Source: Pseudogymnoascus verrucosus (Eukaryota). Taken from it: a stretch of DNA of 64,000 nt. The position numbers and the translations under genes were made by a program. The stretch lies in NCBI GenBank assembly GCA_001662655.1, contig KV460209.1; one strand, written 5' to 3'. Positions 17,011-45,471 of this stretch are shown piece by piece. The notes below the pieces were generated by a model. It did no database searches. It was given only the letters and a program-made list of their open reading frames with translations, and had not been told where the DNA came from. Numbering within the stretch: the stretch's first letter is position 1; every line of letters begins with the position of its first letter.

Positions 17011-19888
17011 ATGGAGCAGCCATCACAGAAGCCCGAAACCAAGCGAAAGCACGTCACGACGGCCTGCGTTGCTTGCCGGGAGAGTAAGGTGAAGGTACAT
17101 TGCAATCCGAACACTACCCTCTTCAGCCAGGCGAATGCTCAGAACTGACACCCGCGCAAGTGTAATGGCGCAACGCCGACTTGCTCAAACTGTTTGAGCA
17201 AAGGTAAGGAATGTCGACAACAGGCCAAAGAAGACAAGCGCAAGTTAGTACTGCCTTCCTTGCTACATCTCCTAGCTAGATGTCCTGACCTCGTAGGCTC
17301 TCCCTTCGCGTCGCTATCGATCTACTTTCCAAAAGAGTCCAGCAGCTCACCCAGTTCGTCAGCGATCATGGATTGGATATCCCACCGATGCCGCTTGACG
17401 ATGACAAGACATTGTCCGGAATTCTGCGAACTCTTGGGCTACCTCAACCCATACCTGCCCAGACCAGGCCAGACGGTGAGAATGGCGCCATACAAGGATC
17501 TCCGACCACTCAGTGTCCAGACCAGAGGATTGAACCCCCAGGGGGCGCAGTTGCGCAAGGATTAAATATGCACGAGATGCCTTCTTCGGAACGCGCCGGG
17601 GAAAGTCCGCTCCCGGCAGCAGCGCGAGGCTTACTCGAGCTTGCGAACGCGGCCGGCGATATAGGCGGCATTATTAAGACCACAGCCAGCTGGGACTGGG
17701 ACATGGCGGCTGAAGCTATGTCACAAGGGCAAATGGTGCACCCAGACTACATCCCGGAAGATACGGCGCTGCAGGGCTTTTCCGGCAATGTCTCGACCCC
17801 CCAGCAGTCTGTCTCAGGCGGAGTGCCGAGCTGTCCTTCGCTAGAGGACGATGACATCAGCACCATCGAAAGCGTCGACGAGCTCGTAGACCAGCTGTCT
17901 GATCGAGTAGGAACGCTTCACATTAAAGCAGGCGGCCACATTCGCTTCTACGGATCGACATCAAACTTTAACCTCCTAGAGACGCCGGCTTCGGATGTCA
18001 ACATGAACGTCCATCGGACTATCCGGAATGATGGGACCGAGCTTTTAGATCGCCTTGGGGTCAACAAGAAGGTTCCGATCGATTTAGAAGACCATCTGAT
18101 AAATCTTTATTTTACGTGGCAGGACCCGTCGTTTCATGCCGTCGATCGCAAGATGTTCGATGAGGCGAAAGTCATATGGCGTGATAAAGGGGAAGATACG
18201 GCCTACTACTCGGAAGCTCTAAGGAATGCCATGTAAGCCAAAGATATATTCACTTTAGTAGTCGAGAGCTAAACTCGTATGGAAAGTTGCTGTCTAGGAG
18301 CAGCCTTCGACGCTCGACACCACCCGGCATTTGTCACATTCCCCAGATCCCTCGCCGATTTCTTCGCCGATAGGGCCAAGGCGCTTTTGGAAATAGAATT
18401 GGACATGCCCTGTGTCGCTACCATCCAGACCCTGATCCTCTTGAGCGCACACGACATAGGATGTGGCCGGGATTCCAAAGGATGGCTCTTTAGCGGTGCG
18501 TTGTTGGCTCGTCGATAATATGTTACTTACGCTTTAGCTGACTTCCCTTATGTTAGGTATGGCAATGCGGCTGTCATTCAACCTGGCGTTGAACCAGGAT
18601 CTCAAACCTTACATCGCGAAAGGCGTAGTAACCGCGGCCGAGGCTGATCTGCGCCGGATGGTCTTCTGGGCCGCCTTCGTAGTGGACCAGTAAGAGAACT
18701 TTTCCACACCTACAATTCAGGGCAGGATCACTGACTGCTTGGCACAGTGTCTGGAGTTTTTACCTAGGCCAGCCATTCCGAATGTCAATGAAAGGCGTTA
18801 CCCTCGAAAAGGCTGGGGCAAAGGCCTATCTGGGGTTACCTGGACAGTGGAGCCCATATGTGTCCCCGACTATGACGCAGACTTTTCCCCCTATGGTCGA
18901 TTGTGTAGAAGAAGTCTGTACATATCAGGTCCTACTATTTGAGGCTATGGCCCCTCTAAGCGATGCCTTGTAAGTTTGACGGCACCAGCAACTGTGGATG
19001 GATAGTTGCTAATCGCCTTGCCACTCTCTTTAGTTACGGCAGCGCGACAACCTCGAAGAGTGCTCTGCATGAACTCAATTCTCAGATCGTGACGAAGCTT
19101 CAAGACTGGAAGGAGAATCTTCCAGTCGAGCTACGCGTGGATCTTCACAATCACGAGACTACTTACTTGCCGCACGTCATCCTGCTTCAGTAGGCGGTCC
19201 CCCACTCCACTCATGATATGCTTTACCTCCCTAACACTCTCGATTTAGCATGCAATACTACCAAAGCGTCATCTACGCATACCGTCCCTGGATGTCAAAA
19301 AGTCAGGTCCAGCCACAGTGGGGTCCCGGCGCCGATCACGCGCGGAAAATGTGCATAGACTCCGCGAGCGCCATTGCACGCCTTCTGCACTTGTATGAAG
19401 AACGGTACACCTTCCGCAGGATCAACATCCAGGCCGTAGCAATTACCTTCTCTGCCGCGCTGCTGCTCGTCTTCGCCACTGTTATTCACCACCAGCGGGA
19501 AAGAGGAGACGAGATCTTGGCCGACCTGAGCGTGTGCTTCCGAGCGCTAGATGAGCTGGCCCCCTCATGGGACACGGCCAAGCGGGCTCGTGACTTCCTC
19601 ATCCGGTTACAGCGGCACTGGGAGCGACGGGCGAGGTCGAACAGTTTAGCCGCCGCGCGTGACGATGCCGGCTCCATGAGTTCGGGCTTTTCAGTCTCGA
19701 GGAAACGGCCACGGCCGTCCGTCCGACCCAACGATGAGCCGTCCGTCCGGCCCAACGATGAGAACAACTGGGCCGACAATGGCATGGCGGCGGCCAACTT
19801 TGGGATAGATATTGATTTCGACTGGATGCTTGCTACAAGTATGGAGGGGATGCCAGGGAACTGGGGAAATGTTTTTTCGGTGCAATAA
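17011..19888 (+). CDS. Zn(II)2Cys6 transcription factor with fungal-specific TF (middle homology) domain; multi-exon
   Basis: ACVACRESKVK/CNGATPTCSNCLSKGKEC binuclear cluster. Also HLINLYFTWQDP, GWLFSG/MAMRLSFNLALNQD and RRMVFWAAFVVD. Confidence 0.95.
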
Positions 19889-20160
19889 GGCCCTAGTATC
19901 CCCCTTTACCGGAGCCGGTGAGCACATGTGGTTCCCATCAATTGTTTTGTTCAGGCATTAATTGCATAGTGCATATTACGTATAATAACAGTTAGATAAT
20001 AGCAACCACCTAGTTGCCCCTAGACTACATACAACAGCAAGAGAGCTATAGTCTCCATTTAGGCCATGTAAATTTCCCCCAAATCAATATATATATATAT
20101 ATATTTCATAAATATCTCTTTCGAGACTCGTTAGACTCGCCTGTGTGCCGGCCATGTCCC

Positions 20161-21319
20161 CTACAATAATCTTCCAGCATGGATCCCTCCTGTGATGAGA
20201 ATATCATCCGATGTATGATACGCACTAGCATCAGACAGGAGGTAGACCACCGGAACCTTCAGGTCCGTTCGATCGCCGATCCGGCGCATGGGCGGCTCGT
20301 TTGTCATGATGTCCGCCAGCCAGGGGTAACGATCACACAGATCAATCGTCATGTCCGTCAGCATGTACCTGTTCACCCAACATTTCCTTTGTTAGCCCTC
20401 TGGAAAAAACGATACAGAAAGTAAAAAGTGCTAGAGTGATCAAGCGTGCTTACCCAGGAGAGATAGAGTTTACGCGGATCCCGAAGGCCGCCAGCTCGAC
20501 ACCCAGTGCTTTGGCTAGCGACAATACGGCGCCCTTACTCGCACAATAGTCGCTCGTCGTCTGTCCTTTGCTGGCAACGTGCGCAGCAATGGAGGCAATG
20601 AGGACTATCGAGCCTCCACGCGGGTTAAAGTCGGTGGGCTCCTGCTTGGCCATCTGGGCGGCAGCCAGCTGCGCGGCGTAGTAAGTGCCGAGCACGTTGA
20701 TGTTCATGCACCGTGCGACGGACTCGGGGGCGCGCTTCATGAAGGGCTCATCAGGGCAAATGCCGGCGGCGGTTATTCTGTTGGGTTGGTTAGTCCTGTG
20801 AGGAAAATGGTCTTCGGAGACGGGAACCACTGCGACAGGTGGACTTACAGGCCGTCGATACGCCCGAAATCCTTTACGATCTCGTCGAAGGTGACTTGAA
20901 GACCAGCGTGATTAGTCACGTCGCTCCTGCGCAAACGAACCCGCTAGTTAGCATTATATACACCATTTAATGATACGCTGGACGAGGTTTTCGAGCTATG
21001 CACATCATGTATGGGGTCGTTCATACAGATCACAGCCTTGCAGGGAAACTTACTTGTACAGCTTGACCTTAACACCAAATTCCGTCTCTAACTTCTGAAA
21101 ATGATGATGTGGCTCGTCAAGCAGGTCGATGATGGCGACATTGCCCCCAACCTCAGCCACGGCGAAGCCAAAGGCCAGGCCAAGGCCACGGCCGCCTCCA
21201 GTGATGACAATGGTGCGGCCCTTTAGGGAAATCAGGTCATACACCGAGCGCGATAGGAACTTATCCGGGTTTCGATCGAGACCATCCTTGGCTGTCGCAG
21301 GGTTCTGTTGGTCTGCCAT
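20161..21319 (-). CDS. Short-chain dehydrogenase/reductase, polyol/keto-sugar type (arabitol/sorbose/5-ketogluconate reductase-like); 4 exons
   Basis: TGGGRGLG, an acidic end to beta-2 (AIID, NAD-type), catalytic Ser in LIASIA, YCASK and IRVNSISPG/YMLTDMT. Confidence 0.9.
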
Positions 21320-21561
21320 TGCACAATAGCGACTTGGCTGGTGACGAGGTTGACGCGAGTTTGGAGTTGATAGATGGAGGGGTATGTTGTCACGTTTACC
21401 TTGTCTTGTACTCAGATGTAAGAGAGTTGCTGGCTGAAGAGGCTACTGAGATGACGGCGCGGCCAAGTAGATATCCTTACTGACCCATTGTCACTTATTG
21501 GAAATGGGTCGCGACAACGGGGTAAACTTCCGTGGCGCGTGCCTAGATTGGCGGACTGGGC

Positions 21562-21640
21562 GTTGTGATGCGGGGTGATCGGGTTATGGTTTTGGACGTC
21601 AGTGGGCCGGGGGTTGTGATGCGGGGTAATCGGATTATGG
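21562..21640. promoter_or_regulatory. Duplicated 28-bp element in the divergent SDR/transketolase promoter, each copy containing GCGGGG (fits the CreA SYGGRG consensus)
   Basis: GTTGTGATGCGGGGTGATCGGGTTATGG (21562-21589) and GTTGTGATGCGGGGTAATCGGATTATGG (21613-21640). Confidence 0.55.
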
Positions 21641-21646
21641 ATTCCG
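21631..21646. promoter_or_regulatory. CGG-N10-CCG candidate Zn2Cys6 site
   Basis: CGGATTATGGATTCCG, 15/16 identical to the site at 36886. Confidence 0.65.
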
Positions 21647-21788
21647 ACGTACTTTCGGCAGTTGACACGCAAGGGGCTCCAATACAAACCCACTGTAATT
21701 TAGCACTCGTCTTTATGAGTCTCGACAATTTCATGTGTAGGCGTGAATAAGGTGCAGACCGACTAATTTTCCGGGTGTGTAGAAGGGG

Positions 21789-21804
21789 CGGAATCTTGAA
21801 CCCG
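21789..21804. promoter_or_regulatory. CGG-N10-CCG candidate Zn2Cys6 site
   Basis: CGGAATCTTGAACCCG upstream of the transketolase. Confidence 0.55.
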
Positions 21805-21928
21805 TGAGTTAGGGTGGCAGTAGCTCGCGATTCAATAATCCGAATCCGTCCAATTCATATTGACTATATACCGCCTCTCCTGGAGAGTCTGGCAGATAAG
21901 GTATGTCGAACTATCAGCACAGCATTTA

Positions 21929-24206
21929 ATGAAGATGACAAAGATGATAAACCAGATTTTGGAGAATATAGTGCCTTCGGCGCCGACGAAGAAGCCCCTG
22001 GACGCCCAGGCTACAGGCTGGAGGGAGAACCTCGACGACGACGACCGTGCCGTTATTGCGCTGCGAAACTTGATCTTCGATATCTGTAACCAGAATGGCG
22101 GCGGGCACGGCGGCTCTGCTATCGGCATGGCTGCCATTGGTGTTGCCCTGTACAAGTACACGATGCGTTACAATCCTTCGAACCCGGAGTGGTTCGACAG
22201 GGATCGCTTCGTTCTCTCTAATGGTATGAGGTTGGAATTCTTTGCATGGTCGTATGTTAACCTGAGATTTTGTAGGACATACCGCGATGTTCTTGTACGC
22301 CTTGAACCATCTCGTCGGTTATGACGCCTGGACAATGGACCAGATCAAGGGTTACGGTAGTGCGAAGATGAACGGTTACAGCACCATGTGCCACGCCCAC
22401 CCAGAAATTGAGGAACCAGCAGTGGAGATCACCACGGGACCGCTAGGCCAGGGTATCGCTAATGCCGTCGGGCTTGCTGTAGCCTCCAAGAACCTCGCAG
22501 CGCGCTTCAACCGGCCGAGCTTCGACGTCGTCAGCTCTCGTGTGTACTGCATGACTGGAGATGGCTGCCTGATGGAAGGAGTCGCGCTCGAGGCCATATC
22601 ACTAGCTGGAAGCTTGCAACTGGATAACCTCGTTTTGATATACGACAACAATCAGGTGACTTGCGACGGTCCTCTTGATTGGATCAACGTCGAGGATGTC
22701 AACGCCAAAATGCGCGCATGCGGGTGGCATGTTCTCGAGGTTGCCGACGGTTCATACGATGTCCAGGCCCTAGTTTCAGCACTCCGTTATTCAGAGACCC
22801 TGGGTGGGAAACCCGTGTTTATAAACATCCGCACCGTCATCGGGCTAGGCACCTCCAATGCAGGAACTTACAAAGCCCACCACGGCACCTTTGATGCAGA
22901 GAGCGTTGCTCTTTCGAAGCGCCTAGCTGGTCAGGATCCCTCAATGACACATCAGATCTCACCCGCCGCCCTAGAATACTTCAGAGAGAGAAAACAACGC
23001 GGCCAGAAGCTACAAGGCGAGTGGGACGACCTAATCCGCAGTTACCAGTTGGCACACCCGGACCTAGCCAAGGAGTTCCATATGAGACAAACAGGAGACA
23101 ACGGGGATGAGTGGCGGAAGATGCTCGAGACGATAGACTCGGAGGCTTTCCGGGGCCAAGCAACACGTGAGGTTAACGGTTCCATTATCGAGAGCATGTG
23201 GAAAGCCCATCCAGCCCTTTTCGGAGGTGGTGCCGATCTAGTCAACTCCAACAAGGTTCCTTATGAGGCGTCCGAGGTATTCCACCCATCCGTGGGCTAT
23301 AAAGGCCGCTATTTGCGTTACGGCATCCGTGAACATGCTATGGCAGCTATCTCCAATGGTATCGCGGCTTACAATCCGGGCACATTCCTACCTATCACAG
23401 CTACATTCTTTATGTTTTTCCTCTACGTAAGTCATCGCGCTATCGGCCGAAGCCGGCTATAAGCTATTATGATGCATTGCAATACTAATCTTTACTTTTG
23501 CCAGGCCGCTCCGGGAGTCCGCATGGGTGCCCTTTGCCATTTGCCCGTTATCCACCTCGCAACGCACGACTCCTTCGCCGAGGGCCAAAACGGTCAGACT
23601 CACCAGCCTATCGAACTGGATTCCCTGTACCGTGCTATGCCTAACCTGACATACATGCGACCGTGCGACCCTGAGGAGACCATCGGCGCCTGGCTGCTCG
23701 CGCTCTCGAAGACTACGGGTCCGTCCCTGCTTTCGCTCGGCCGTGACCCCGTCGGCCCTGTGCCGAACACAAACCGCTTAAAGGTCGCCAAGGGCGCGTA
23801 CGTCGTCAAGGAGGCCGATAATGCGCAGCTCACTCTTGCTAGCTGTGGGACCAATATGCACTATGCCGTCGCGGCGGCCGAGAGTCTGTCCGCCTCAGGG
23901 ATTCCGACGCGATTGATCAGCGCTCCGAGCTTCGATCACTTTGACGAACAAGACAGGGCTTACCGCGAGTCGGTGTTCCCGCTGGATGGCACGCCTATTG
24001 TAAGTGTCGAGGAGTATGTTGCGACGACCTGGGCGCGGTACGTGACGGCAAGCATTGGAATGACCGGGTTTGGATACTCGGCTTCGAATGCCAGTAACTA
24101 TGACAGATTCCGGTTAGATGCAAAGGGAATAGAGGCTAGGGTCAGGGATTATCTAAAGGATTTGGCTGGTGGTGATGCTAGGAGGGCAGGATGGCGTGCA
24201 ATATAG
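21929..24206 (+). CDS. Transketolase of the dihydroxyacetone-synthase-like subfamily; 3 exons (exact start ATG uncertain)
   Basis: GGGHGGSAIG, DRDRFVLSNG/H, HPEIE..EITTGPLGQG, TPP motif GDGCLMEG...YDNN, YGIREHAM and the variant loop THDSFAEGQNGQTHQPIE. Confidence 0.93.
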
Positions 24207-24613
24207 ATCTGGTGAGGGGTTTGCACCTTAGTTTGATAGTACTATCTAGTAAAAATATCTTCGATTGCGAGGATAACCTGTTCTAGTAGTGTAATAGAAG
24301 TCTCTGCACTTATTTACTCGTTAAATAATTTATTTAGTAATGCATGTAACGCTAGGTCTTAAACTATAAGACTTATAGAGGTTTCGTCGCGTTAGTTTAC
24401 TTAACAGAGGAGGTAGGGGATTAGACATAAAGGCTTTTATAAGACACGTTACTAGTATATAACAAATACTATATTAAGTTGAGCATAAAGCTCCTATCTA
24501 AGAACTATCTATATAGTTAATAGTTCCCCTAAGAGCTATAATAATGCATTAATTTACTAATTAAAGTCTTAAGTTAGTAACATAGTAGATATTATATATT
24601 ACTTACTATATAA

Positions 24614-27265
24614 CAGTGTTCCCCGGATACGTATCCGGATACTATCCGTGAACTCTACGGATAGGATACAGTATCTGTGAGAAATCTATAGATATGTATC
24701 CGGATATCCAGATATGTATCCGGATACATGAGGCTTAAGGCTATAATAGAGTATATAAAAATGGAATTGAAGCTCATAGCTATAGTGTATATATATAATA
24801 ACTCCTATTCCTCCCGCTTATCGTCTACATCACTATCATCTACCTCTAGTAAATGGCCCTAATCCTGTAAGTAAAGTAGATATCTAACTGTTAATAGCGA
24901 CAGTCTGTTCCGTTTCTTGGTAATAATATCACTACTATTGCTAAATACCTGTTCTGATGCAGCTAATGTTGTAGGGATTGCAAGATGATCTCTTGCAATC
25001 TTTGCAATAACTAGATATTAGTACTACTTTGTAGCCTAATATTTAAGTATATTAGTCTGTGGTCTAGGACAGCCCTCGTTGTTCCATCTTTTCCATTCTA
25101 GCTCTTAATGAGAGGTTGTAGTTGTAACATATAAATCATCATTAGAGTCTAGCTCTAGTTGCTCCTTAACTTCTAATTGAATCTGTTGCTCAATTCTCTC
25201 ATTAGTAAGCTGATACTCACGGCTGTTATACTAGTTATATATAGCCCTAAATTAAGCTAATACTCGATGCCTTTTAGCATTCTTAATGCTAGTTGGCCAT
25301 AGCCTCTAAAATACAGCAAGATTTATCTATAGATCACAAACTGTAGCTATAGCTAAGTGACTATAACGCTAGCTTGTTGTTAAAGTATAGTATTTGTTAA
25401 GTTTAAGCAACGTAGCTATACAAGCTAGGCTAATTGTCGTCTAGTTACCAACTGCCTAAATTGTCATTTTAAGTCTCTCAATCATCTTAAGATATTTTGG
25501 AATAACGTAGTTTAGAGTTAGGTAGGCGCTTGCTTGCATCTTTTAAGACGGGCTTAAAAAGATCTTAAACAAATCCTTAAGACTCTAAATAATTGTCTAA
25601 TCTTCTAAAGTAAGAGCAATCTCTCTTATACTTAGATCAAAAGTCTATGTAGCATATATAGCAGTTATAGGATCTTGTAAGTACTTTGTAGTAATAAGCA
25701 TATAGTACGTAGAATTCCATCGAATTAGCATGTTAAGCGTTAGCTGTTAAGGCTTAAGACTAGCTATAAGTGCTTACCTTTATAGAGCGTCGTTCCATTG
25801 CCTTCGATTCTAGAATACATATATATGCCTCCATAGCTTTGCTAGAGTTATCATAATCTCTATATTACTCTCAACTATACGCGGAATCTAAGCTACGCCT
25901 AGCTCACATCGATAATCATTAATCTCTGCTAATAGGTTGGCTTTTAAGGCTTTAAGAGTAGCTTAAACTACAAGATTGATAATATAGGCGATATAGCGTA
26001 CGTTGCCTTCCTTAACAGTAAAGGGCTATAGTTGTTAAGATGAAATTAGATAGGCTTTAGCTAGTTTCTCAAACTTAGAGAGCATTACATTATTAACTAA
26101 GGCATTGTCCTGAGTGTAAGTAAAGATAGCTCTTATAATGCCTATTCCGTCTATAACAGCTTATAACTCCTCTATAAGATATTCACCGCTATGAATAGGC
26201 TCTTTAAGATGTATTACATTAAGCAAAGCTAACTGTTACTGCCATTTATCATTAATCCAATGACTAGTAACTGCTGCAAACTAAGTATAGTTGCAAGCTG
26301 ACTAGGCGTCTGTTGTAATTGATATTCGTCCTCTACTCTTAATATGAGAATTAAGCTCTACAATTAACTGCCCTTAGTAATATGAGAATTAGCAGAGCAG
26401 CTTACAGCTAACAGTTGTAGTAGATATACTAAGTGTAGTTGGGCTTAGGAAGTGTACTAGTTAACGGTACGTATAGCTCTCTATAATACTCAAAGACAGG
26501 TTATTTAATATAATAAATTATATTAACAATTCTCTATATTTTGCTTAGTGGAGTGCTAGCTTGAGTGTAGGCTGTACTCGCTAGCGAGGCTCGAAAAAGG
26601 ATGATGAATTGCTGCTTAAAGCGCTAGATATACTGATATTGCTGTTCTTGCTATTGTGTAGCTGCTCTAAAGCAGGGTGCTTTCTCTTATAATGCAACTA
26701 TAAGTTGCTAGTTGAGTTCTAGGTTGCAAGTTAGGGTAGTAGCTTGTAGCTGCAGCCTAGCTAAAGGCATTCATACTATATAGTTAAAGGTGCCGTTTTA
26801 AGTAGTAAACGGCTGTATAGCCTTATAGAGAAGAGTGATGTTTTAGTAATAGGCAAACTATGCTGTAGTGGCGGCTATAAGTAGACTAGAGTTCTTAGTG
26901 TAGACAGCGGCAGAATAGGGGTATTTAAGGGCGGGAGATTTAATTCTTGATAGCCTATAGGGGCTTCAATATTAGTGGGAGCATCTAACAAAGGCGAGTC
27001 GCTTATTTTGTCTACAGTAACAAAGTTATAGTAAAGCAACTCTCAACTCTTCCTATCGACGGTAATGGTAAGCGTAACGATGAATTTTCTATTCTTAGCT
27101 ATTCTTAGCTATTCTTAGCTATTCTTAGCTATTCTTAGCAGGTATCTGGATATGTATCTATAGATACTCATAGTATCCGGATACTCGTTGAATTCTTAAG
27201 GATACAAGTATCTGCATACAAGTATCTAGATACCCTAGATACTTAGGTATCCGTGGGGATCACTG
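24614..27265 (-). mobile_element. hAT DNA transposon, full length, RIP-inactivated
   Basis: 8-bp TSD CTATATAA (24606-24613 and 27266-27273). Imperfect TIRs CAGTGTTCCCCGGATAC / GTATCCGTGGGGATCACTG, with subterminal GTATCCGGA repeats. Minus-strand relic motifs TTDA(W)S, RWNST and IAKIARDHLAIP...SEQVFS...IITKKRNRL. Confidence 0.93.
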
Positions 27266-27273
27266 CTATATAA

Positions 27274-28520
27274 ATATATTAAAGATAAGCTATAGGTATA
27301 GAAAATAGATTATAGGTCTATAGAGTAAAAGAATAGGCTACTTAAGTAAGAAGACTTAATAAAAGCTCTAATATTTAAGAGTAAGATTAGGCTTAAGCTT
27401 AAGTAATTAGAGCTTTAGGCTTATAAGCTTAGCTTTAGCTCTAAACTTAAGCTAGAGCCTAGCTCTACTAAACCTATAAGCTTAGCTCTAGCTCTAAGCT
27501 TAAGCTAAAGCTTAGGAGCTTAGTAGAGCTAGGGTCTAGCCTAAGCTCTAGCTTAAGTTCTAGCGTAAGTTTAAGCTTAAGTTTAAGCTTAAGCTAGAGA
27601 GCTTAAGAATTAGAGCTTAAGAATTAGAGCTTAAGAATTAGAGCTTAAGTGTTATAGCTTACCTTACTATTAGTATTAAGGAATAGATTAGTTATAAACA
27701 CATATATAGAAAATAATAGTTATTAGCTAGAAAGGGATAAGGGGTCTTAGTTATTATATAATAGACTATATAGGACCTTAGTAGTCTAGTAAGGTAATAG
27801 TTAGGACTATAATAGACTATAATAGTCCTTTATAACATTAGGTATAATACTACTATATAAGTAGATAGTTAGTTCTTAGATAGGAGCTTTATACTTAACT
27901 TAATATAGTATTTATTATATACTAGCTAAGCCTAAGACTAAGCTTTAGGCTATAGCTAATCCTATAATTAAGAGAACTATAGTAGCTACTTAAAGAGTAA
28001 GGGTTTCTATAATATATAAGTATATAAAGAAGTATAATATCTAACACTTTAATATTAGAACTATAGTCTCTATAAAGGTGCCTTAAGAGGATAGAACCTT
28101 AACTAATAATAAAAGGCTCTTTATATACATTCTAAAAGAGCCTTACCCTTATAGATATTAGGTTCTTATATACTCTAGTATTATATAACACCTTATCTCT
28201 ATAAAGTCACTTAGAGTTATAAAGTAAGCTCTATAGTCTAATATTATTATTCTTATGTTTATAAAGTAAGTAATGCTAGGACTTATAGCTAAAGAGGCTT
28301 CTATAAGTATATAGGTTAGAATATTATGTTAATGTAAGGGTTAATGTAGTATAAAGAGGTACTGTTGTTATAAGGAAGTAAAGGAGTGTAGTGTATACTA
28401 CTATAACGATGATTATGACTATAGCTACTTATTAGGTCTAGCTACCTATATAGAAATTGCTTTAGTTAAGAGGCTAAAGTAGAAGTTGGCAAGAGCAGAC
28501 ACTACTAGACATATAGTATA
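27274..28520 (+). mobile_element. Heavily RIP-mutated partial copy of the Ginger-like integrase element
   Basis: 27280-27345 aligns with about 50665-50730, and about 27960-28510 aligns with about 51255-51800 (shared ATAGTCTCTATAAAGGT.CCTTAAGAGGATAGAACCTTAACT). Confidence 0.8.
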
Positions 28521-28605
28521 GAGTAGGCAATTCAATTCAATTCAATATACTAGTCTATTATACTACGTAGTGGTTGGTAGTTAGGCTAGAGCATATATAA
28601 TCTAG

Positions 28606-29858: not shown

Positions 29859-30020
29859 TGTGGGTAATGCTCTTTTTGACCGAGGTAAGATATGGAAGGA
29901 ATTGAATGAAGCGACGATGGAGAAACGAAATACCTTGATGGCCGTTGATGACCTTTAACTCCGGTGGCCGAGGGCGAGGTGTTACGCCCGTTCTTGAGGC
30001 TCGCCTCAAGAGCCCCGAAG

Positions 30021-30036
30021 CGGAATGAGATCTCCG
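30021..30036. promoter_or_regulatory. CGG-N10-CCG candidate Zn2Cys6 site
   Basis: CGGAATGAGATCTCCG in the MDR/BVMO divergent promoter. Confidence 0.6.
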
Positions 30037-30154
30037 CATTTAGCTACGGCCTAACTATTGTAAGTTGAGATATTATCGTTCGAGCCACCGAAAAGTGGCT
30101 AATGGTCTCGGACGTTGTTGCGAGATGCGTTCTCCAAAACAATTAGCGTATGTA

Positions 30155-30170
30155 CGGGATCTAGTTTCCG
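30155..30170. promoter_or_regulatory. CGG-N10-CCG candidate Zn2Cys6 site
   Basis: CGGGATCTAGTTTCCG in the MDR/BVMO divergent promoter. Confidence 0.6.
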
Positions 30171-30425
30171 AACATCTAAATTCGTGGCAATGTCTACCCC
30201 GCGAATGCGGATGCGATGGCAATAAACCCCATCGGATTATGATAGCCAGACTGGGGAAGCTAATACTCTTTGCTTCTAGCATGTGGCAAGATGTTTTCGG
30301 GTCTCGCAAGTACTTGGTTCCTAGCTCTTTCGAATAGTTAATATATTGTCCTTCGATCCTCTAAACAGAGAACTTATCATCTTGATTTTGCTTCTTAACT
30401 AAGTTGTCAACCTCCGCTTCTTATT

Positions 30426-34378: not shown

Positions 34379-34556
34379 ATTCAAGATGGATGACTGATAG
34401 TGTCCCCCACCTGTTACAAAGTGCTATCTTTCAACGGGCGGCTTGGGTACAGCGTGGGTTTCCCCTGCCCGGTTTATGGGGCAAGAACAGTGTAACCGGG
34501 AGGGCAGAGCTGTCATATCCTTTCCTATTGGAGTAATTAAACCTTAATGCAGCTAA

Positions 34557-34609
34557 CGGATTCAATATCCCGATCGGCGAAGATCTAACGTCCCGGGATT
34601 CGAGAGCCG
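34557..34609. promoter_or_regulatory. Two CGG-N10-CCG candidate Zn2Cys6 sites
   Basis: CGGATTCAATATCCCG (34557-34572) and CGGGATTCGAGAGCCG (34594-34609) in the PFK2/ALDH divergent promoter. Confidence 0.55.
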
Positions 34610-34870
34610 GCGGGGTGAGTGGGGCTGGGAGTCGGATGGGAACAACGTGCGGGGTTCGGACGTGAGCTCCGGGTGGAGATGGGAAACTTGGATTCGTCCC
34701 ACTTCCCCATACTCTAAGATCTCCGAAATTCCAAACCTCCAAAAGCTATAGACGCAACTTTTGTCTTTGAGCATGGCATAATCCTCAAACTTTCCTATTG
34801 CATTGAACTCTAGCTGCTGTAACCTAACACTCTAAATCTCACTTTTTTTATATATCTCGATTTTCAAACA

Positions 34871-36885: not shown

Positions 36886-36901
36886 CGGATTATGGCTTCC
36901 G
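36886..36901. promoter_or_regulatory. CGG-N10-CCG candidate Zn2Cys6 site
   Basis: CGGATTATGGCTTCCG upstream of the tartrate dehydrogenase. Confidence 0.65.
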
Positions 36902-37046
36902 CTATTCGGGAGTGGAAGACATAATCATCTTCCGATGCCGCGCTCGCAAAAGACTACATCTTAAAGGTTGTTAGATTAGATGTTGCTTTTCACTTTATAG
37001 ACTTTCACACTTTGAAACGACAGCAACTCCACGCAGAAGCCTCATT

Positions 37047-38288
37047 ATGTCGTTAAGGCAGAACGGTGTTCGCACGCACAAGATTGCTTCTATCCCCGGG
37101 GACGGTATAGGGGTAGAAGTAATAGAACAGACGATCAAGGTTCTCCGGACCATAGAGGCACTGTTCAGCTCATTCACTTTAGAAATCGACACTCTGGACT
37201 GGAGCTCGAAGCGATACTTAGAGCAAGGCAAATACATTCCCGCAGATGGCTGGCAGAGATTAAGTGTCAACGATGCCATCTTGTTTGGTGCTGTTGGATC
37301 ACCTGGTATGTGCTCGGTCAAGAAGGGAGGATATTTTCAATCCAGAGGTCACATATCTAACATTTTTTCTTAGATGTGCCCGATGATATCTCCCTGTGGA
37401 ACCTGATTCTGCCGCTTCGAAAAAAAGTGATAACTCTTAAGACAATTCATATCAGACCAGCAGCTGACAGTAGCTCAGTTGAATCAATACATCAACCTTC
37501 GTCCAATCCGGATTCTGCCTGGGATTTCAGCTCCGCTAAAGGGCTGCGCAGATAGCGACCTAGACTGGATCATTGTCCGGGAGAATAGCGAGGGTGAATA
37601 CGCTGGCCAGGGCGGCATCACGCACGATGATACCCCGAACACCATTGCGAACGAAGTCGCCGTCTTCACCAGGGCTGGTATCGAACGCACCATGCACTTC
37701 GCATTCAAAGTCGCTCGAGACAGACCCCGAAAGAAACTAACCATGGTAACTAAGAGCAACGCCCAGAGATACGGCATGGTCTTGTGGGATAAGGTCTTTT
37801 ATGAGGTTGCAAAGGAGTATCCGGATGTAGAGACAGACAAGATGCTTGTAGATGCCATGACAGTGCGGATGGTGCTGAAGCCCAAGTCGCTCGACACCAT
37901 TGTAGCTACCAACCTCCACGGAGACATTCTGTCGGATTTGGCCGCCGCACTGGCTGGCAGCATTGGGGTTGCTGCTTCCAGCAGTCTAGACCCAACGAGG
38001 CAGAACCCCAGCTTGTTCGAGCCGATCCACGGAAGTGCTCCAGACATAGCAGGTCAGGGTATTGCTAATCCCGTCGGGGCGTTTTGGAGCGCTGCCGAAA
38101 TGCTCCGCTGGCTTGGAGAAGGCGCGGCGGCGGACCTCTTGATGAAGGCCATTGAGACTGTTACAGCCTCTGGTGCTAAGACAAGGGATTTGGGGGGTGC
38201 ATATGATCTTGCTCAAGTCACTGAAGCAGTCATTGTGGAGATGAAGAGGTCATTCAGCAATGCCAGGAAAATCGTGTCTAAAATCTAA
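37047..38288 (+). CDS. Tartrate dehydrogenase/decarboxylase (D-malate dehydrogenase; TtuC/DmlA branch of the LeuB/ICDH family); 3 exons
   Basis: IPGDGIG, ILFGAVGSP/DVPDDISLW, NQYINLRP, RENSEGEYAG, TKSNAQ, NLHGDILSDLAAALAGSIG and FEPIHGSAPDIAG. Confidence 0.9.
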
Positions 38289-38749
38289 TCTAAGAGTTTG
38301 GTTAAATTATTACATTACAATTGATATTCCTCCTTGGTATTGTCCCTTCTGACAGTGTCCTCGGAGGGTAGTTCGCTGGGGGTATATTATTAGAGTTATT
38401 TTGATGTTCCATTCTTAATCTTCTTTAACTGTTGTATTGTCGTAACTGTATGGCATTATCTCTAACCCCGGAAAATTGATTGACTACAAAAGTGCAAAAT
38501 CCAGCATTGGCTGGCTTAGCGAAATCGATAGCGATAATACCCCATTAGAACTCAAATCCCCACTATTCTCACTGTCGTCGGCGACGTAAGTGCTGGCCCC
38601 CCGATGCCTACGGTACCGGGCGAGTATACTCGTGTTATCATACCGTTTAGGTCTATCTTCGTAGCAAAGCCTAGACCATTGTTGCCCACGGGCAGTCATC
38701 TCGGAGGGAATTTCCGTTAATGTGCATATGTATGAGCGGCGGCCCTATG

Positions 38750-38765
38750 CGGAAACTGAATTCCG
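38750..38765. promoter_or_regulatory. CGG-N10-CCG candidate Zn2Cys6 site
   Basis: CGGAAACTGAATTCCG upstream of the aldo-keto reductase. Confidence 0.65.
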
Positions 38766-38863
38766 GCATCGTTTCATGAAGGACTAGGTATAGGTAGTAG
38801 TAATATGGACGCAGCCGTAACGCAGTTATGAGAAGCACGACACCTTGTACCCACTTCGCAAAT

Positions 38864-39905
38864 ATGGCACCCTCATACTTCAAACTGAACACAGGAGCCA
38901 ACATCCCTGCCCTAGGCCTCGGCACCTGGCAATCTGGACCAGGAGAGGTCAAAAATGCCGTGTCGTACGCGCTCCGTACCGGCTACAAGCTCATCGACTG
39001 CGCTTTCTGTTACGGCAATGAGTCTGAGGTTGGGGAAGGTATCAAGGAGGCTCTGGACTCAGGTGCCGTAAAGAGAGAAGATTTCTTCGTCACTAGCAAG
39101 ATGTGGTGTACCTTCTCGTCCAGGGTAGAGGAAAACCTCGACATGAGCTTGAAGGCTTTAGGGCTCGACTATGTCGATCTCTATCTTATACATTGGCCAG
39201 TGGCCATGAATCCTCACGGTATGGATGTACAGCTCAGTTGTATGGCCATTTAGGCTGACATGAGAACTTGTTGGTTGTAGGCAACGATATCAAATTTCCC
39301 ACGCATCCAGATGGCTCCCGTGATCTTGACTTGTCATGGTCACACATCCAGACCTGGAAACAGATGGAGGATCTAGTCGGAACGGAAAAGGTGAAGGCGA
39401 TAGGGGTGTGCAACTACAGTCTGAAGTATCTAGAGGAGTTGGTTTCCCATGCCACCGTGGTCCCTGCGGTTAATCAGATTGAGAACCACCCCTACCTACC
39501 ACAAACCGAGGTGGTGTCTTTCTGCAATTCTAGAGGCATCCAAATCATGGCATACTCACCTCTTGGGAGCGCCGGATCCCCTCTGATGAAAGAGTCACTT
39601 GTGCAGGCTATTGCTGCGAAGCATGGACTATCTCCCGCCACTGTTCTCCTAAGCTATCACAGTCTGTCCTCCCCTGCTCCTATCGTCTTATTATATTTAA
39701 TGCTGATACATGATCCTTAGACAAACGCGGCAGCATTGTAATCGCTAAGTCTGTACAGGAGAGTCGAATTGACCAGAATAATAAAATCATTGACCTAGAT
39801 GCAGACGACATGGAAGCTCTAGAAAACATCTACAAGTCAGCTGGGATCAGGAGATATGTATATCCGGCCTTCAATGTAGACTTTGGCTTTCCAGATAAAT
39901 CTTAG
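38864..39905 (+). CDS. Aldo-keto reductase resembling Trichoderma GAR1-type NADPH D-galacturonate/D-glucuronate reductase; 3 exons
   Basis: GLGTWQS, GYKLIDCAFCYGNE, LIHWP, AVNQIENHP, IAKSV and C-terminus RYVYPAFNVDFGFPDKS*. The AKR call is firm; the GAR1-subfamily match is from memory. Confidence 0.85.
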
Positions 39906-40200
39906 ATAGATATTGATAGCGTGGTTACATAGTACATAGCTGACTCTGTCGGATGTCCAAATACTGATCAGCAATGGATTCAAATGAGATCTTGTTACTG
40001 CCTGCTTCTTAGAGATATGTGTGTATTCCATGAGATGGGCTAGTATAAGTAAGGATACAGTGCTATATTGTGTAACAGAGAAAACTTGGCCTGCCAAAAG
40101 TTCAAACCCCTCAGATAACTCAACTCTATCCGCTATATATGACATATAGTTGTTTGTGAGCCTAAAGAATACAGCGAATGTCTGTCTAGACCTAGCAACT

Positions 40201-41946
40201 TCATACATGCTGTATCTGGCCCATAAGGGTCTGCTCAGCCGAAGCGGCTGCAATCCTCATGAAATCCTTCTCTTCCTGCCCGCTTTTATCCCCAAACATG
40301 ATGTCCATCTGTTCTAGAGTCTTGCCCTTTGTCTCCGGGACGAGAAGCAACGCCCAGAGACCGGAAAGACCACAGAAAAAGGCGAAAAAAATATAGGTCC
40401 CGTAACCAATAGTTTCAAGCATGGGAGGGGTGGCGATTCCAACGGTGAAGTTGGAAAGCCAGTTAACGCACACAGAAAGAGCCACACCCTTCGCGCGCTT
40501 AGAATTTGGGAACACCTCCGGGGGCAGGCTCCACCCCAAGGGCGAGTAGGAAACGCCATAAACCATAATGAAGCAGAAGGCCATGGCGACTGCTGCCCAG
40601 CCAGCAGCCGGGTTTGCTGACCAGTTCTTTGAGTAGACTCCAGCAATAGCAGCAATGACGACGTAGCAGATGCAGGAGCCAAACCCTCCCACGATGGCAA
40701 GTGGCCTTCGTCCCACCTTATCGATGACAACGAAGCAGACTCCGACAGCGACAAGCTGCAATACATTAAAGACTCCCGATAGAGTAAGCGCCATCTCGGG
40801 CGACTGCCCTATAGATTGGAAAAGGGTGGGTGCGTAGTAGATGAAAGCGTTGATGCCAGAAAACTGCTGGAAGAAGCAGACTCCGCAGCCCACCACGGTT
40901 CTGCGCCACATCTTGCGGTCGAAAAGATCAAGCCACGAGAGCACCTCAAGCTTGAAAGAGCCAGTTCCCGGGTGTCTTTGTGCCAAGACCATCTTATTGA
41001 ATTCGACCTCGGCGACGATGCCCTTGAACTCCTTTTGGACGCGGCTGTCGGAAGGGGGCAGACGCCGCAGCTTTGATAGACTGGTTAGGCATTCTTCGTT
41101 GCGGCCGACGAGAGCGAGCCATCGGGGCGAGTAAGGGAAGAGGTGGATAGCAACACCTAGAAATGTGGCGCAGAGCATTTGCAATCCCAGGGGGAGCCTA
41201 AACGAGACTTCGCTGGAGATGAATCGTGTACCGTAGGTGATCCAGAATGCAATGACGACGCCAGACACAATGGAGATGGACTCGAGCACGAGAAGTGTTC
41301 CTCGTAGATTTGGCGGAGAGATCTCAGAGATGTATAGCGGCGCGCCCTGTGTTATATCCCCATTAGCTTTCCGTACAAAAGCACGCATTTTCAAAACAAC
41401 AACTTTACAGAGTACATGTTTACATACCATTGCAAGCGTACCAACTCCAATACCTCCAATAGCTCTTCCAACAACCAGGGCACTGTAGCTCTGAGCCGCG
41501 GTCTGGATGATGGCGCCGATGTCGAATATAATAACCACAACGGTCAGGGCCCACTTACGCGAGATCCTGTCAGCCAGGTACGGCATGAAGATGCAGCCTA
41601 TAAAAGCGCCGAGCAGCAGCATGGCAGTCATGAGGCTAGTGCCAAACGCAGTCTTCGTCTGGGGGAAGGCGTCTTGGAACTGTTCCATAACGTTGATAAT
41701 CGAGATGACGCCCTGGTCGTAGCCGAAGGAGAAGCCGCCCAGCGAGGCGAGGAAGGCGGCACCGAAGACGTATGAGTTGCCAATCAGCCCACGGATGCCG
41801 TTTGGCCCATACGCCAAGTTCTCGGCGAAGATATCATCAGCCTCCAGGTCGGTCATGGTCTTGTTCTCGGAGCGTTCCACATGCTCGCTTTGGACCCTTT
41901 CTTCAGGCGTCACAGTATCCGAGTCGAGCTTCTTGTCTATGGACAT
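40201..41946 (-). CDS. Sugar porter (MFS) family transporter; one in-frame intron at about 41349-41427
   Basis: LGGFSFGYDQG, ADRISRK, PLYISEISP, PYSPRWL, QQFSGINAFIYY, DKVGRR and VPETKGKTLE. Confidence 0.95.
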   Translation of the reverse strand: MSIDKKLDSDTVTPEERVQSEHVERSENKTMTDLEADDIFAENLAYGPNGIRGLIGNSYVFGAAFLASLGGFSFGYDQGVISIINVMEQFQDAFPQTKTAFGTSLMTAMLLLGAFIGCIFMPYLADRISRKWALTVVVIIFDIGAIIQTAAQSYSALVVGRAIGGIGVGTLAMVCKHVLCKVVVLKMRAFVRKANGDITQGAPLYISEISPPNLRGTLLVLESISIVSGVVIAFWITYGTRFISSEVSFRLPLGLQMLCATFLGVAIHLFPYSPRWLALVGRNEECLTSLSKLRRLPPSDSRVQKEFKGIVAEVEFNKMVLAQRHPGTGSFKLEVLSWLDLFDRKMWRRTVVGCGVCFFQQFSGINAFIYYAPTLFQSIGQSPEMALTLSGVFNVLQLVAVGVCFVVIDKVGRRPLAIVGGFGSCICYVVIAAIAGVYSKNWSANPAAGWAAVAMAFCFIMVYGVSYSPLGWSLPPEVFPNSKRAKGVALSVCVNWLSNFTVGIATPPMLETIGYGTYIFFAFFCGLSGLWALLLVPETKGKTLEQMDIMFGDKSGQEEKDFMRIAAASAEQTLMGQIQHV

Positions 41947-45466: not shown

Positions 45467-45471
45467 AGGGC

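Follow-up and report, generated by a model that had tools for sequence, protein, structure and literature searches.

Two bacterial systems resemble parts of the locus described here. In the ttu operon, TtuC is accompanied by a transporter and an enzyme of glycolysis, and the chn pathway relies on an SDR, a BVMO, an alcohol dehydrogenase and an ALDH. In fungi, myo-inositol is opened by inositol oxygenase. In the window (the whole 64,000-nucleotide stretch that was analysed), a tartrate dehydrogenase (TDH) of the TtuC type lies among ten neighbouring genes that include a transketolase (TK), an SDR, a BVMO and an ALDH (Table 1), and no description of such a cluster was found in the literature searched.

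A Pfam scan combined with gene models places all ten genes, intact, between position 17011, the start codon of the transcription factor, and position 41946, the minus-strand start codon of the porter, and these limits are exact. Every family that the earlier note had named was borne out at its place by the Pfam families listed in Table 1, and the genes it had called apparently intact are indeed so, the spliced models having zero internal stops. Its description of the genes as mostly in divergent pairs is also right for SDR/TK, MDR/BVMO and PFK-2/ALDH, three pairs in all, but 'contiguous' needs qualifying, since a 4.4-kb AT-rich repeat remnant splits TK from MDR. This remnant (TpA/ApT 1.66, 74-bp inverted ends, no ORF of at least 80 aa) matches a block at 49.8-52.3 kb over 606 bp at 81%; in L013, a related locus that lacks the insert, TK and MDR are ~350 bp apart.

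Table 1. Genes and other features of the cluster, in window positions.
Feature	Position	Strand	Details
Zn2Cys6 transcription factor, 820 aa	17011..19888	+	7 introns; Zn_clus + Fungal_trans on exons
SDR, 291 aa	20161..21319	-	introns 20369-20453, 20778-20848, 20927-21053; adh_short
SDR/TK divergent promoter	21320..21928		CGG-N10-CCG at 21631-21646, 21789-21804; tandem repeat ~51 bp
TK, 'DAS-like' fungal clade, 715 aa	21929..24206	+	introns 22224-22275, 23427-23504; Transketolase_N/pyr/C
AT-rich RIP-like repeat remnant, 4.4 kb, not a cluster gene	24207..28605		GC 0.33
MDR, Zn-dependent, polyol dehydrogenase type, 398 aa	28606..29858	-	intron 28924-28979; ADH_N + ADH_zinc_N
MDR/BVMO divergent promoter	29859..30425		CGG-N10-CCG at 30021-30036, 30155-30170
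BVMO, type I, 556 aa	30426..32257	+	introns 30587-30662, 30758-30842; FMO-like
6-phosphofructo-2-kinase (PFK-2) paralogue, predicted dead phosphatase half, ~508 aa	32781..34378	-	intron 32880-32953; 6PF2K + His_Phos_1
PFK-2/ALDH divergent promoter	34379..34870		CGG-N10-CCG at 34557-34572, 34594-34609
ALDH, succinate-semialdehyde-dehydrogenase (SSADH) type, 494 aa	34871..36634	+	4 introns; Aldedh
Site upstream of TDH	36886-36901		CGG-N10-CCG
TDH, tartrate / D-malate dehydrogenase, TtuC type, 373 aa	37047..38288	+	introns 37306-37373, 37427-37478; Iso_dh
Site upstream of AKR	38750-38765		CGG-N10-CCG
AKR, 306 aa	38864..39905	+	introns 39219-39280, 39662-39720; Aldo_ket_red
Sugar-porter MFS transporter, 554 aa	40201..41946	-	intron 41347-41427; Sugar_tr 362 bits

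Fungal secondary-metabolite clusters typically have a pathway-specific Zn2Cys6 regulator, an MFS transporter, BVMOs and tailoring-type oxidoreductases. The locus has all of these, RIP-like AT-rich blocks flank it, and it might be imagined to build a small sugar-derived metabolite rather than to degrade one. This is very unlikely, however: no PKS, NRPS, terpene synthase or DMATS was present among the ORFs scanned over 64 kb or in the Pfam-scanned loci, the transporter is an uptake-type sugar porter, and the SSADH-type ALDH and the TDH are catabolic enzymes of central-metabolism type. Judged from its gene content, the cluster seems to be of the sugar-breakdown (catabolic) type.

Comparison with 30 metagenome loci encoding TK relatives, most of them on short contigs and several near-duplicates (L007 of L015, L020 and L022 of L021, and L011 of L012), revealed that the most frequent partners of TK at orthologue level are BVMO (8 loci), SDR (6), MDR (6) and the SSADH-type ALDH (5), at least one of which is present in 17 of the 30. 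The cluster also includes TDH, PFK-2, AKR, the sugar porter and the Zn2Cys6 factor, which were found alongside TK or one another. L013 holds eight of the ten genes (SDR, TK, MDR, BVMO, PFK-2, TDH, AKR and porter) in a rearranged order, with identities of 69% for TK, 66% for the porter and 43% for AKR, and homologues of the transcription factor adjoin TK in L003 (40% identity) and L015 (28%). TDH, PFK-2 and AKR each occur in only one metagenome locus (L013), but the linkage of the first two was regained in named genomes, where TK, TDH and the PFK-2 paralogue are separated by 3-5 locus tags or share a contig: Scytalidium lignicola (TK g3130, TDH g3134, PFK-2 g3135), Phialemonium thermophilum (TDH ..9913, TK ..9917) and Conoideocrella luteorostrata (TK 008273, TDH 008276, and an equally long contig bearing PFK-2). 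Equal scaffold lengths give weaker linkage in Coniochaeta ligniaria, Aaosphaeria arxii, Cadophora, two Talaromyces species, Xylaria cf. heliscus, Ophiostoma piceae, Diplogelasinospora, Neocucurbitaria and Verruconis, and in Paramyrothecium foliicola TK and ALDH are merged in one gene model. The co-conservation that the earlier note had put forward as a check was found for TK, SSADH-like ALDH, TDH and MDR; AKR recurs only in L013 and at 43% identity. Two loci carry extra genes: L021 has a cyclase-family hydrolase, and L001 a xylose-isomerase-like TIM barrel that is preceded by the promoter palindrome.

This palindrome, CGG-N10-CCG, was derived from the window before six further loci were searched for it. 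It is present in all five enzyme promoters, which contain 8 of the 15 window sites in 5.7% of the window, while spacings from 4 to 16 other than 10 give 0-3 sites in the same regions. The six further loci contain 31 sites, 17 of which lie no more than 700 bp upstream of a cluster homologue, regions that account for 11.4% of the sequence (binomial 5e-9); both comparisons are of promoters with all remaining sequence rather than with unrelated promoters. The palindrome is absent from the porter and transcription factor promoters, and from four of five loci checked in a second TK clade, the fifth (L006) having two sites. Its occurrence in common suggests that the enzyme genes are co-regulated, and the clustered Zn2Cys6 factor is probably the protein that reads it. 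Because fungi have very many SDR, MDR, AKR and MFS genes, single neighbours may recur by chance. Mere adjacency of unrelated metabolic genes is nevertheless exceedingly improbable and is contradicted by the recurrence of orthologue-level partners, over rearranged loci and several fungal classes, and by the conservation of the palindrome in other fungi; moreover, L027, the single long locus with a canonical-type TK (39% identity, GC 0.71), holds none of the partners. The ten genes make up a single cluster that is conserved in filamentous ascomycetes, more than a chance adjacency.

TK, which gives a gap-free alignment with a Pseudogymnoascus protein (P0001, 93.4% over 710 aa), has kept the catalytic and phosphate-binding residues of yeast TK (His30/69/103/263/469/481, Arg359, Ser386 and Arg528), and the retained sugar-phosphate-binding residues fit an aldose phosphate acceptor. 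Asp477, which reads the 2-hydroxyl of the acceptor aldose, is replaced by Asn, as in 117 of 120 family members, and an orthologue scores under the TIGR00232 cut-off (636 vs 682). The label 'DAS-like' given earlier is tentative, backed by this family-wide replacement and by database entries, which often name the family 'dihydroxyacetone synthase' (DAS) by automatic annotation. If TK were a true DAS, formaldehyde could be the key intermediate: MDR would oxidise a polyol to a 2-ketose, BVMO would insert oxygen at the hydroxymethyl side to give an ester yielding formaldehyde and an aldonic acid minus one carbon (e.g. threonate or erythronate from a pentulose), TK would fix the formaldehyde onto xylulose 5-phosphate, and SDR and ALDH would oxidise the C4 aldonate to tartrate for removal by TDH. 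Such a scheme has a job for every enzyme and is consistent with BVMO and TK being the pair seen in the most loci, with a common divergent promoter in the second TK clade (L006, L010 and L028), with the family name, with the Asn that genuine yeast DAS also carries, and with the nearest solved relatives of MDR (pentitol/hexitol 2-dehydrogenases) and AKR (aldose reductases). Nevertheless, it is rather unlikely: the secondary hydroxylated carbon should migrate in preference to CH2OH, giving glycolate and an aldose without formaldehyde, Pfam scans detected no dihydroxyacetone kinase or formaldehyde dehydrogenase in the cluster, the TK C-termini (-RAI, -RQL) are unlike the peroxisomal signal of yeast DAS, and the DAS names are automatic.

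By their sequence matches, the oxidoreductases look less specific than the earlier note had them. Among solved structures, MDR comes closest to L-arabinitol-4-, xylitol and sorbitol dehydrogenases. The L-idonate 5-dehydrogenase (IdnD) model gives it 137 bits (202 for full-length homologues) against a cut-off of 469, and the threonine dehydrogenase and scyllo-inosose 3-dehydrogenase (IolM) models score almost equally; 'idonate-type' is not supported. PDB and NCBIfam matches make the 'GAR1-like' AKR a generic aldose/aldehyde reductase, and the SDR, for which solved structures and curated families contain no close relative, is generic too. BVMO carries an FxGxxxHxxxWD motif along with two of the GxGxx[GA] type, and its best solved relatives are cyclohexanone, steroid and phenylacetone monooxygenases; like MDR and ALDH, its model is collinear over the splice junctions with intron-free homologues. 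One could envisage cleavage of a plant cyclitol or alicyclic alcohol as in the chn pathway, with the same enzyme classes: SDR would form a cyclic ketone, BVMO a lactone, MDR would oxidise the freed alcohol and ALDH would yield a dicarboxylic acid, leaving only final fragments to TK, TDH and PFK-2. The proximity of BVMO to cyclohexanone monooxygenases, the near-equal IolM and IdnD scores and the extra genes of L001 and L021 would fit, but there is no lactone hydrolase in the window, TK, on which the conserved set is anchored, would not be needed, and inositol oxygenase already opens myo-inositol in fungi. We regard this as improbable.

Two enzymes match their proposed identities well. The best family for ALDH is TIGR01780 SSADH and its best solved relative E. 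coli GabD (8e-76), which bears out the SSADH-like assignment, and it shares 78% and 64% identity with the ALDH portion of a merged TK+ALDH model (P0104). TDH, gap-free over 373 aa with a Pseudogymnoascus protein (P0121, 98.7%) and closest among solved structures to the P. putida tartrate dehydrogenase/decarboxylase 3flk (4.7e-72), is supported by this orthologue scoring above the TIGR02089 tartrate dehydrogenase equivalog cut-off (482.4 vs 470.4). An assignment at equivalog level raises the possibility that TDH acts first, on tartrate or D-malate as imported substrate or early intermediate. The oxaloglycolate it makes would lose CO2 to give hydroxypyruvate, the classic irreversible TK donor, whose C2 unit would pass to an aldose phosphate, in keeping with the retained phosphate-binding residues of TK, and the ttu operon offers a comparable pairing; the remaining oxidoreductases would be side branches. 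This is distinctly unlikely, because the transporter is a sugar porter rather than a carboxylate carrier (one exon gives 275 bits with TIGR00879, over the cut-off of 238) and BVMO, MDR, SDR, ALDH and AKR are left unexplained, four of which recur near TK more often than TDH does.

The PFK-2 paralogue, 99% identical to a Pseudogymnoascus protein, has a C-terminal intron that moves its true end to 32781 from 32936. Its kinase motifs are intact. Throughout the short subfamily to which it belongs, other residues stand at the phosphatase site (RH of RHG, plus one conserved Arg and one conserved Glu); by these positions, it is a kinase-only, phosphatase-dead enzyme.

The route proposed earlier, from a uronate or 5-keto-hexonate to tartrate, is compatible with TK, with an ALDH of SSADH type, with a TDH at equivalog level, and with MDR and AKR, but leaves PFK-2 without a role and also BVMO, the TK neighbour found in the most loci (8/30); no result points to its substrates. 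For this conserved, apparently co-regulated cluster, our best explanation, to which we give a probability of about 35%, is an amended TK/ALDH/TDH backbone that includes BVMO and PFK-2. A sugar-like compound (possibly a sugar acid, polyol or cyclitol) would be taken up and converted by AKR, MDR and SDR to a ketone adjoining a hydroxymethyl group, such as a 5-keto-aldonate. The C-C bond next to the carbonyl would then be cut, TK moving a C2 unit onto an aldose phosphate and freeing a C4 acid-aldehyde, which ALDH would oxidise to tartrate or D-malate and TDH would convert to glycerate, hydroxypyruvate or pyruvate. BVMO would act on a similar ketone, either upstream, turning a cyclic ketone (e.g. 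an inosose) into a uronate, or as an oxygen-dependent means of ketol cleavage; both alternatives are guesswork, and needing two of them weakens the explanation. By raising fructose-2,6-bisphosphate, the PFK-2 paralogue would let ketose phosphates formed by TK flow into glycolysis. On sequence grounds, the backbone from ketol through TK and ALDH to TDH is one plausible chemistry among several, and tartrate or D-malate is a plausible pathway intermediate. In many other moulds, too, these genes stay clustered.

Pfam recovered all ten families that the earlier note had assigned to the cluster, in the order it had given them, and none of the exon models, obtained by splice-site search and manual building, contains an internal stop. 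The window is fungal, single exons being 93-99% identical to Pseudogymnoascus proteins; the transketolase (TK) and tartrate dehydrogenase (TDH) models align without gaps to the Pseudogymnoascus orthologues P0001 (93.4% over 710 aa) and P0121 (98.7% over 373 aa), and the models of the Baeyer-Villiger monooxygenase (BVMO), Zn-dependent medium-chain dehydrogenase (MDR) and aldehyde dehydrogenase (ALDH) are collinear across splice junctions with intron-free homologues. A C-terminal intron in the gene for the 6-phosphofructo-2-kinase (PFK-2) paralogue was exposed by alignment to an annotated orthologue. Three pairs share divergent promoters: TK with the short-chain dehydrogenase (SDR), MDR with BVMO, and PFK-2 with ALDH. 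The flanking genes are unrelated to the cluster (DAO-family FAD oxidoreductase, OTU, thioredoxin, dynamin and Nuf2). Among the Pfam matches of the scanned window ORFs (selected ORFs of at least 80 aa in the cluster and most ORFs of at least 110 aa in its flanks) there was no polyketide synthase, NRPS, terpene synthase or DMATS, and this makes a biosynthetic cluster very improbable. An open frame of 888 aa (8131-10794, minus strand) is without a Pfam match at E ≤1e-4.

Genes of the cluster and AT-rich blocks around and within it
Feature	Coordinates	Strand	Assigned by
Zn2Cys6 factor	17011-19888	+	Pfam
SDR	20161-21319	-	Pfam
Transketolase (TK)	21929-24206	+	Pfam
Zn-dependent MDR	28606-29858	-	Pfam
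Flavin monooxygenase (BVMO)	30426-32257	+	Pfam
PFK-2-like	32781-34378	-	Pfam
Aldehyde dehydrogenase (ALDH)	34871-36634	+	Pfam
Isocitrate/isopropylmalate-family dehydrogenase (TDH)	37047-38288	+	Pfam
Aldo-keto reductase (AKR)	38864-39905	+	Pfam
Sugar porter	40201-41946	-	Pfam
AT-rich block, first	13700-16700
AT-rich block, second	24207-28605
AT-rich block, third	41960-45900
AT-rich block, fourth	49800-52300

The cluster is framed by AT-rich blocks (GC 0.33-0.40) and split once by the second of them. All four have a RIP-like dinucleotide bias (TpA/ApT 1.3-1.7); a 606-bp repeat (81%) is common to the second and fourth, and a 171-bp repeat (82%) to the first and third. The second block has inverted ends of 74 bp, is absent at a related metagenome locus (L013) and is interpreted as a degenerate transposon that landed between TK and MDR.

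Metagenome contigs were scanned with 25 aligned TK relatives, yielding 30 loci (with near-duplicates: L007 and L015; L020 and L022 with L021; L011 and L012) that were then searched with the ten window proteins. At least one of SDR, MDR, BVMO and ALDH occurs at orthologue-like identity in 17 of them. Partners were not found at ten of the 30 loci, nine of these ten being 1.0-6.0 kb long; the tenth, L027 (22 kb, GC 0.71, TK only 39% identical to the query), whose contig is probably bacterial, serves as the negative control.

Cluster partners at the 30 metagenome loci
Partner	Loci	Best-segment identity
BVMO	8/30	45-85%
SDR	6/30	42-90%; two further at 29% left uncounted
MDR	6/30	39-57%
ALDH	5/30	68-74% in four, 40% in one
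TDH	1/30	71%
PFK-2	1/30	59%
AKR	1/30	43%
Close porter	1/30	66%

Locus L013 carries SDR, TK (69% identity), MDR, BVMO, PFK-2, TDH, AKR and porter in a gene order different from that of the window, with the divergent pairs SDR/TK and MDR/BVMO retained. BVMO, MDR and SDR also adjoin TK in a second, intron-poor TK clade (~53% identity; L006, L010, L012 and L028); at three of these loci (L006, L010 and L028) BVMO and TK are arranged head to head. The association of TDH and PFK-2 with TK was supplied by named genomes: Scytalidium lignicola (locus tags g3130 for TK, g3134 for TDH and g3135 for PFK-2), Phialemonium thermophilum (TDH ..9913 and TK ..9917 on one 55-kb contig) and Conoideocrella luteorostrata (TK 008273 and TDH 008276, with PFK-2 on a contig of equal length, 88 kb), together with the weaker evidence of some ten further species in which scaffolds of equal length carry two or three of the genes. 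In the Paramyrothecium foliicola protein P0104 (1108 aa), TK is joined to an SSADH-type (succinate-semialdehyde dehydrogenase) ALDH that matches the two large ALDH exons of the window at 78% and 64% identity; annotation has probably merged two neighbouring genes of the same strand here, with a genuine fusion as the alternative. Relatives of TK, TDH and PFK-2 bear taxon names from Leotiomycetes, Sordariomycetes, Eurotiomycetes and Dothideomycetes, and the enzyme set is, as judged from these names, widespread. Other genes seen at the metagenome loci are a xylose-isomerase-like TIM barrel with weak similarity to 3-dehydroshikimate dehydratase (L001:6002-7078) and a CGG-N10-CCG ~160 bp upstream, and, at two loci only, a 'putative cyclase' family protein that could be a hydrolase (L021:8360-8770 and L020:2597-3007).

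The 64-kb window contains 15 copies of the palindrome CGG-N10-CCG against 9.9 expected, and eight of these sites lie within five enzyme promoters (two each in SDR/TK, MDR/BVMO and PFK-2/ALDH, one each in TDH and AKR); the palindrome is absent from the porter and Zn2Cys6 factor promoters of the window. Together these seven scored promoters account for 5.7% of the window, and the excess within them (binomial 5e-7) is a post hoc result, the spacing having been chosen after inspection; alternative spacings of 4 to 16 give 0-3 sites each in the same promoters. In an independent test on six non-duplicate loci, 17 of 31 sites were found at most 700 bp upstream of cluster homologues, in regions amounting to 11.4% of the sequence (binomial 5e-9; here as in the window, promoters are compared with all remaining sequence, not with unrelated promoters). 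Five second-clade loci were checked, and only L006 has any sites (two). The half-sites resemble CGG[AG][AT][AT], and because the classic Zn2Cys6 site consists of inverted CGG triplets a fixed distance apart, the clustered factor is the obvious candidate reader; the cluster is probably one regulon. The SDR/TK promoter also contains a ~51-bp tandem duplication (~21555-21660) with GATGCGGGGT[GA]ATCGG in each copy and an intact CGG-N10-CCG in the second copy only; its 16-mer has no further occurrence in the window, and the repeat GATGCGGGGTRATCGG was rejected as a shared promoter element, being confined to this promoter. The cluster is real and conserved, bringing together uptake, redox and C-C-cleaving enzymes behind promoters with a common conserved palindrome; chance adjacency of the genes is contradicted and deserves hardly any credence.

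As to the identity of the substrate, we infer throughout. The earlier note had proposed a route in which a sugar acid is taken up and converted by AKR and MDR/SDR to a 5-keto-hexonate, which TK cleaves, ALDH then producing the tartrate that TDH consumes. The last two steps find counterparts in the cluster. The TDH orthologue P0121 passes the NCBIfam tartrate dehydrogenase equivalog TIGR02089 (482.4 against a cut-off of 470.4), the best solved relative of TDH is the P. putida tartrate dehydrogenase/decarboxylase (3flk, 4.7e-72) and its orthologues are named D-malate dehydrogenase (decarboxylating) in UniRef; it is predicted to be a TtuC-type tartrate/D-malate dehydrogenase. Its -SKI end was dismissed as a peroxisomal signal, not being kept among orthologues. 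The ALDH, whose best solved relative is E. coli GabD (8e-76), has the SSADH family TIGR01780 as top family for both exons (310.9 + 260.3 bits over 396 of 494 residues, the cut-off of 646 applying to the whole protein) and is a putative SSADH-type enzyme. On the simplest reading, the pair would convert a C4 acid-aldehyde to tartrate or D-malate and then decarboxylate this oxidatively. In the tartrate utilization operon ttuABCDE of Agrobacterium vitis, too, a TtuC-type dehydrogenase is accompanied by a transporter, a regulator and an enzyme of glycolysis, and the cluster TDH orthologue passes the same curated TtuC model; that operon, however, encodes hydroxypyruvate reductase and pyruvate kinase and is not known to include TK, BVMO, MDR, SDR, ALDH or AKR. 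It is improbable that in the fungal cluster tartrate is the entry substrate and hydroxypyruvate the TK donor.

Upstream of TK the route fares less well in its detail. The nearest relatives of the MDR are L-arabinitol, xylitol and sorbitol dehydrogenases, with L-arabinitol 4-dehydrogenase at 5e-42 against 9e-26 for E. coli IdnD. Among curated bacterial families L-idonate 5-dehydrogenase (NF007375) comes first, far under its cut-off of 469, with 136.7 bits for the MDR exon of the window and 201.6 bits for the full-length cluster MDRs of L028 and L012, and threonine dehydrogenase (200/179) and the inosose dehydrogenase IolM (190/162) are close runners-up; the idonate-type assignment of the earlier note is not borne out. 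Database names of MDR relatives are generic (threonine or sorbitol dehydrogenase), and SDR and AKR are generic family members only. An MDR of the polyol 2-dehydrogenase type would yield a ketol of the kind cleaved by TK. In the route proposed in plants from ascorbate to L-tartrate, L-idonate is oxidized to 5-keto-D-gluconate, which has the stereochemistry that TK donors require, and TK cleavage and semialdehyde oxidation then give tartrate. That route matches the cluster in its enzyme classes, employing a sorbitol-dehydrogenase-family enzyme that makes a 5-keto-aldonate, a TK and an SSADH-like ALDH. However, the cluster MDR fails the curated L-idonate 5-dehydrogenase model, and tartrate is the end product in plants, whereas the cluster has in addition a dehydrogenase that would consume tartrate, together with a BVMO, a PFK-2 paralogue and a porter for uptake.

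Catabolic gene clusters of fungi are already known, for instance for quinate, galacturonate and glucuronate; no literature on a cluster such as this one was found in a full-text search whose reach stopped short of ~1.7 million articles in PubMed Central and of most papers behind subscription. In the available passages, the D-glucuronate pathway of Aspergillus niger (gaaA, gluC, the gluD-gluE pair and gluF) ends in gluconate. It resembles the cluster in its enzyme classes (the first step is of AKR type, the L-idonate 5-dehydrogenase of alcohol-dehydrogenase type and the 5-keto-gluconate reductase of SDR type) and in the pairing of genes on a bidirectional promoter, which gluD-gluE (a D-isomer 2-hydroxyacid dehydrogenase and an alcohol dehydrogenase) share (PMC5306355). 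In these same passages transketolase, monooxygenase and tartrate have 0 occurrences each, whereas the cluster has TK, BVMO and TDH (PMC5306355). The galactarate pathway of A. niger was rejected as a match, its genes, in the passages available, including no transketolase or monooxygenase (PMC5153877). A 2-Hacid_dh domain, the type of the gluE partner, was not found in the cluster by Pfam, and the promoter partner of the cluster MDR is BVMO.

The BVMO model has the fingerprint FKGDMFHTAHWD and the dinucleotide-binding motifs GAGPAG and GNGCSA, the type I fingerprint being FxGxxxHxxxW[PD]. Among solved structures, cyclohexanone, steroid and phenylacetone monooxygenases come closest to it (1e-35 to 1e-27), the database names of its relatives are generic (4-hydroxyacetophenone or cyclohexanone monooxygenase), and it is predicted to be a type I enzyme. 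The bacterial cyclohexanol-to-adipate pathway (chnA-E) uses an SDR, a BVMO, an alcohol dehydrogenase and an aldehyde dehydrogenase, classes that the cluster shares and that run in that order. It is a long shot, however, that the cluster encodes such a ring-cleavage pathway, since Pfam found no hydrolase domain in the window cluster that could act on the lactone; unlike chnA-E, the cluster is eukaryotic and has a sugar porter, TK, TDH, PFK-2 and a Zn2Cys6 regulator.

All three Pfam TK domains are found in TK, whose orthologue P0001 scores below the transketolase equivalog cut-off of TIGR00232 (636.3 against 682.25). His30, His69, His103, His263, Arg359, Ser386, Glu418, His469, His481 and Arg528 of yeast TK are kept, their catalytic and substrate roles presumably being those of the yeast enzyme, and the only catalytic or phosphate-binding residue changed is Asp477, which is Asn. 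This Asn (in E/Q-G-Q-N-G) is found in 117 of the 120 TK relatives P0001-P0120, in place of the canonical Asp of G-E-D-G; one relative in the set has the canonical form. The dihydroxyacetone synthase (DAS) of methylotrophic yeasts, which serves the xylulose monophosphate cycle, also has Asn at the Asp477 position, and the clade of the cluster TK is named after DAS in databases. The main rival builds on a true DAS-type TK, which would fix formaldehyde freed by BVMO; it gives every enzyme a role but requires an unusual migration preference, and we consider it unlikely. In contrast to DAS systems, the cluster lacks alcohol oxidase and DHA kinase (by Pfam) and a canonical peroxisomal signal, and the neighbours of its TK are sugar oxidoreductases and a BVMO; its hosts are not known to be methylotrophs. 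The C-terminal peroxisomal consensus is [SAC][KRH][LM], and the TK family ends chiefly in -RQL, -RAI or -RSI, the -RAI being that of the cluster TK; these ends are not of the consensus type.

The PFK-2-like protein (6PF2K, 216 bits in Pfam) belongs with a short form of the enzyme. GLPARGKS, FNVGERRR, DATNST..RR and GPDY, which we take to be the nucleotide and sugar-phosphate kinase motifs, are common to the short (cluster-type) and the long forms. In the phosphatase half, by contrast, TRHGES, found in all 65 long, housekeeping-type homologues (at least 560 aa) of the fungal set P0241-P0360, reads FSGGES in the window protein, and the RH pair is also missing in most of the 55 short homologues; one conserved Arg and one conserved Glu, kept in 65/65 long forms, are likewise replaced. 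By its motifs, the short subfamily is phosphatase-dead with the kinase kept, and the contigs of several of its members also carry TK or TDH.

The tartrate route thus survives in part: the ALDH/TDH pair and the ketol-making type of the MDR fit it, whereas BVMO and PFK-2 fall outside it and leave it incomplete. Because BVMO is the most frequent partner of TK across loci and the cluster also includes the PFK-2 paralogue, its backbone needs amending, and with both enzymes added it is the best single reading, to which we give a probability of roughly 0.35. On chemical grounds, BVMO may open a cyclic ketone (as from an inosose to a uronate) or cleave a ketol with oxygen. More speculatively, and with rather low probability for the reading as a whole, BVMO and the Asn477-type TK might form an unrecognized two-enzyme module for the cleavage of keto-sugars or keto-sugar acids in fungi that are not methylotrophic. 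BVMO would open or cleave the ketone, and the DAS-like TK would capture the C1 or C2 fragment (a formaldehyde or glycolaldehyde unit) onto a sugar phosphate; the residual C4 acid would leave via tartrate, which the SSADH-type ALDH would produce and TDH consume, while the dedicated kinase-only PFK-2 would retune glycolysis.

Such a module, if real, would give the 'DAS-like' transketolases of moulds a first physiological role and would provide natural enzymes for the TK and semialdehyde steps of tartrate metabolism. Once the substrate is known, a function would follow for these 'dihydroxyacetone synthase-like' transketolases, for a phosphatase-dead PFK-2 subfamily and for a conserved fungal BVMO (few fungal BVMOs have an established physiological role), and a pathway of fungi that runs via tartrate might come to light, its enzymes being candidates for steps by which plants make tartrate. 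Direct experimental access is offered by the clustered regulator and the conserved CGG-N10-CCG element.
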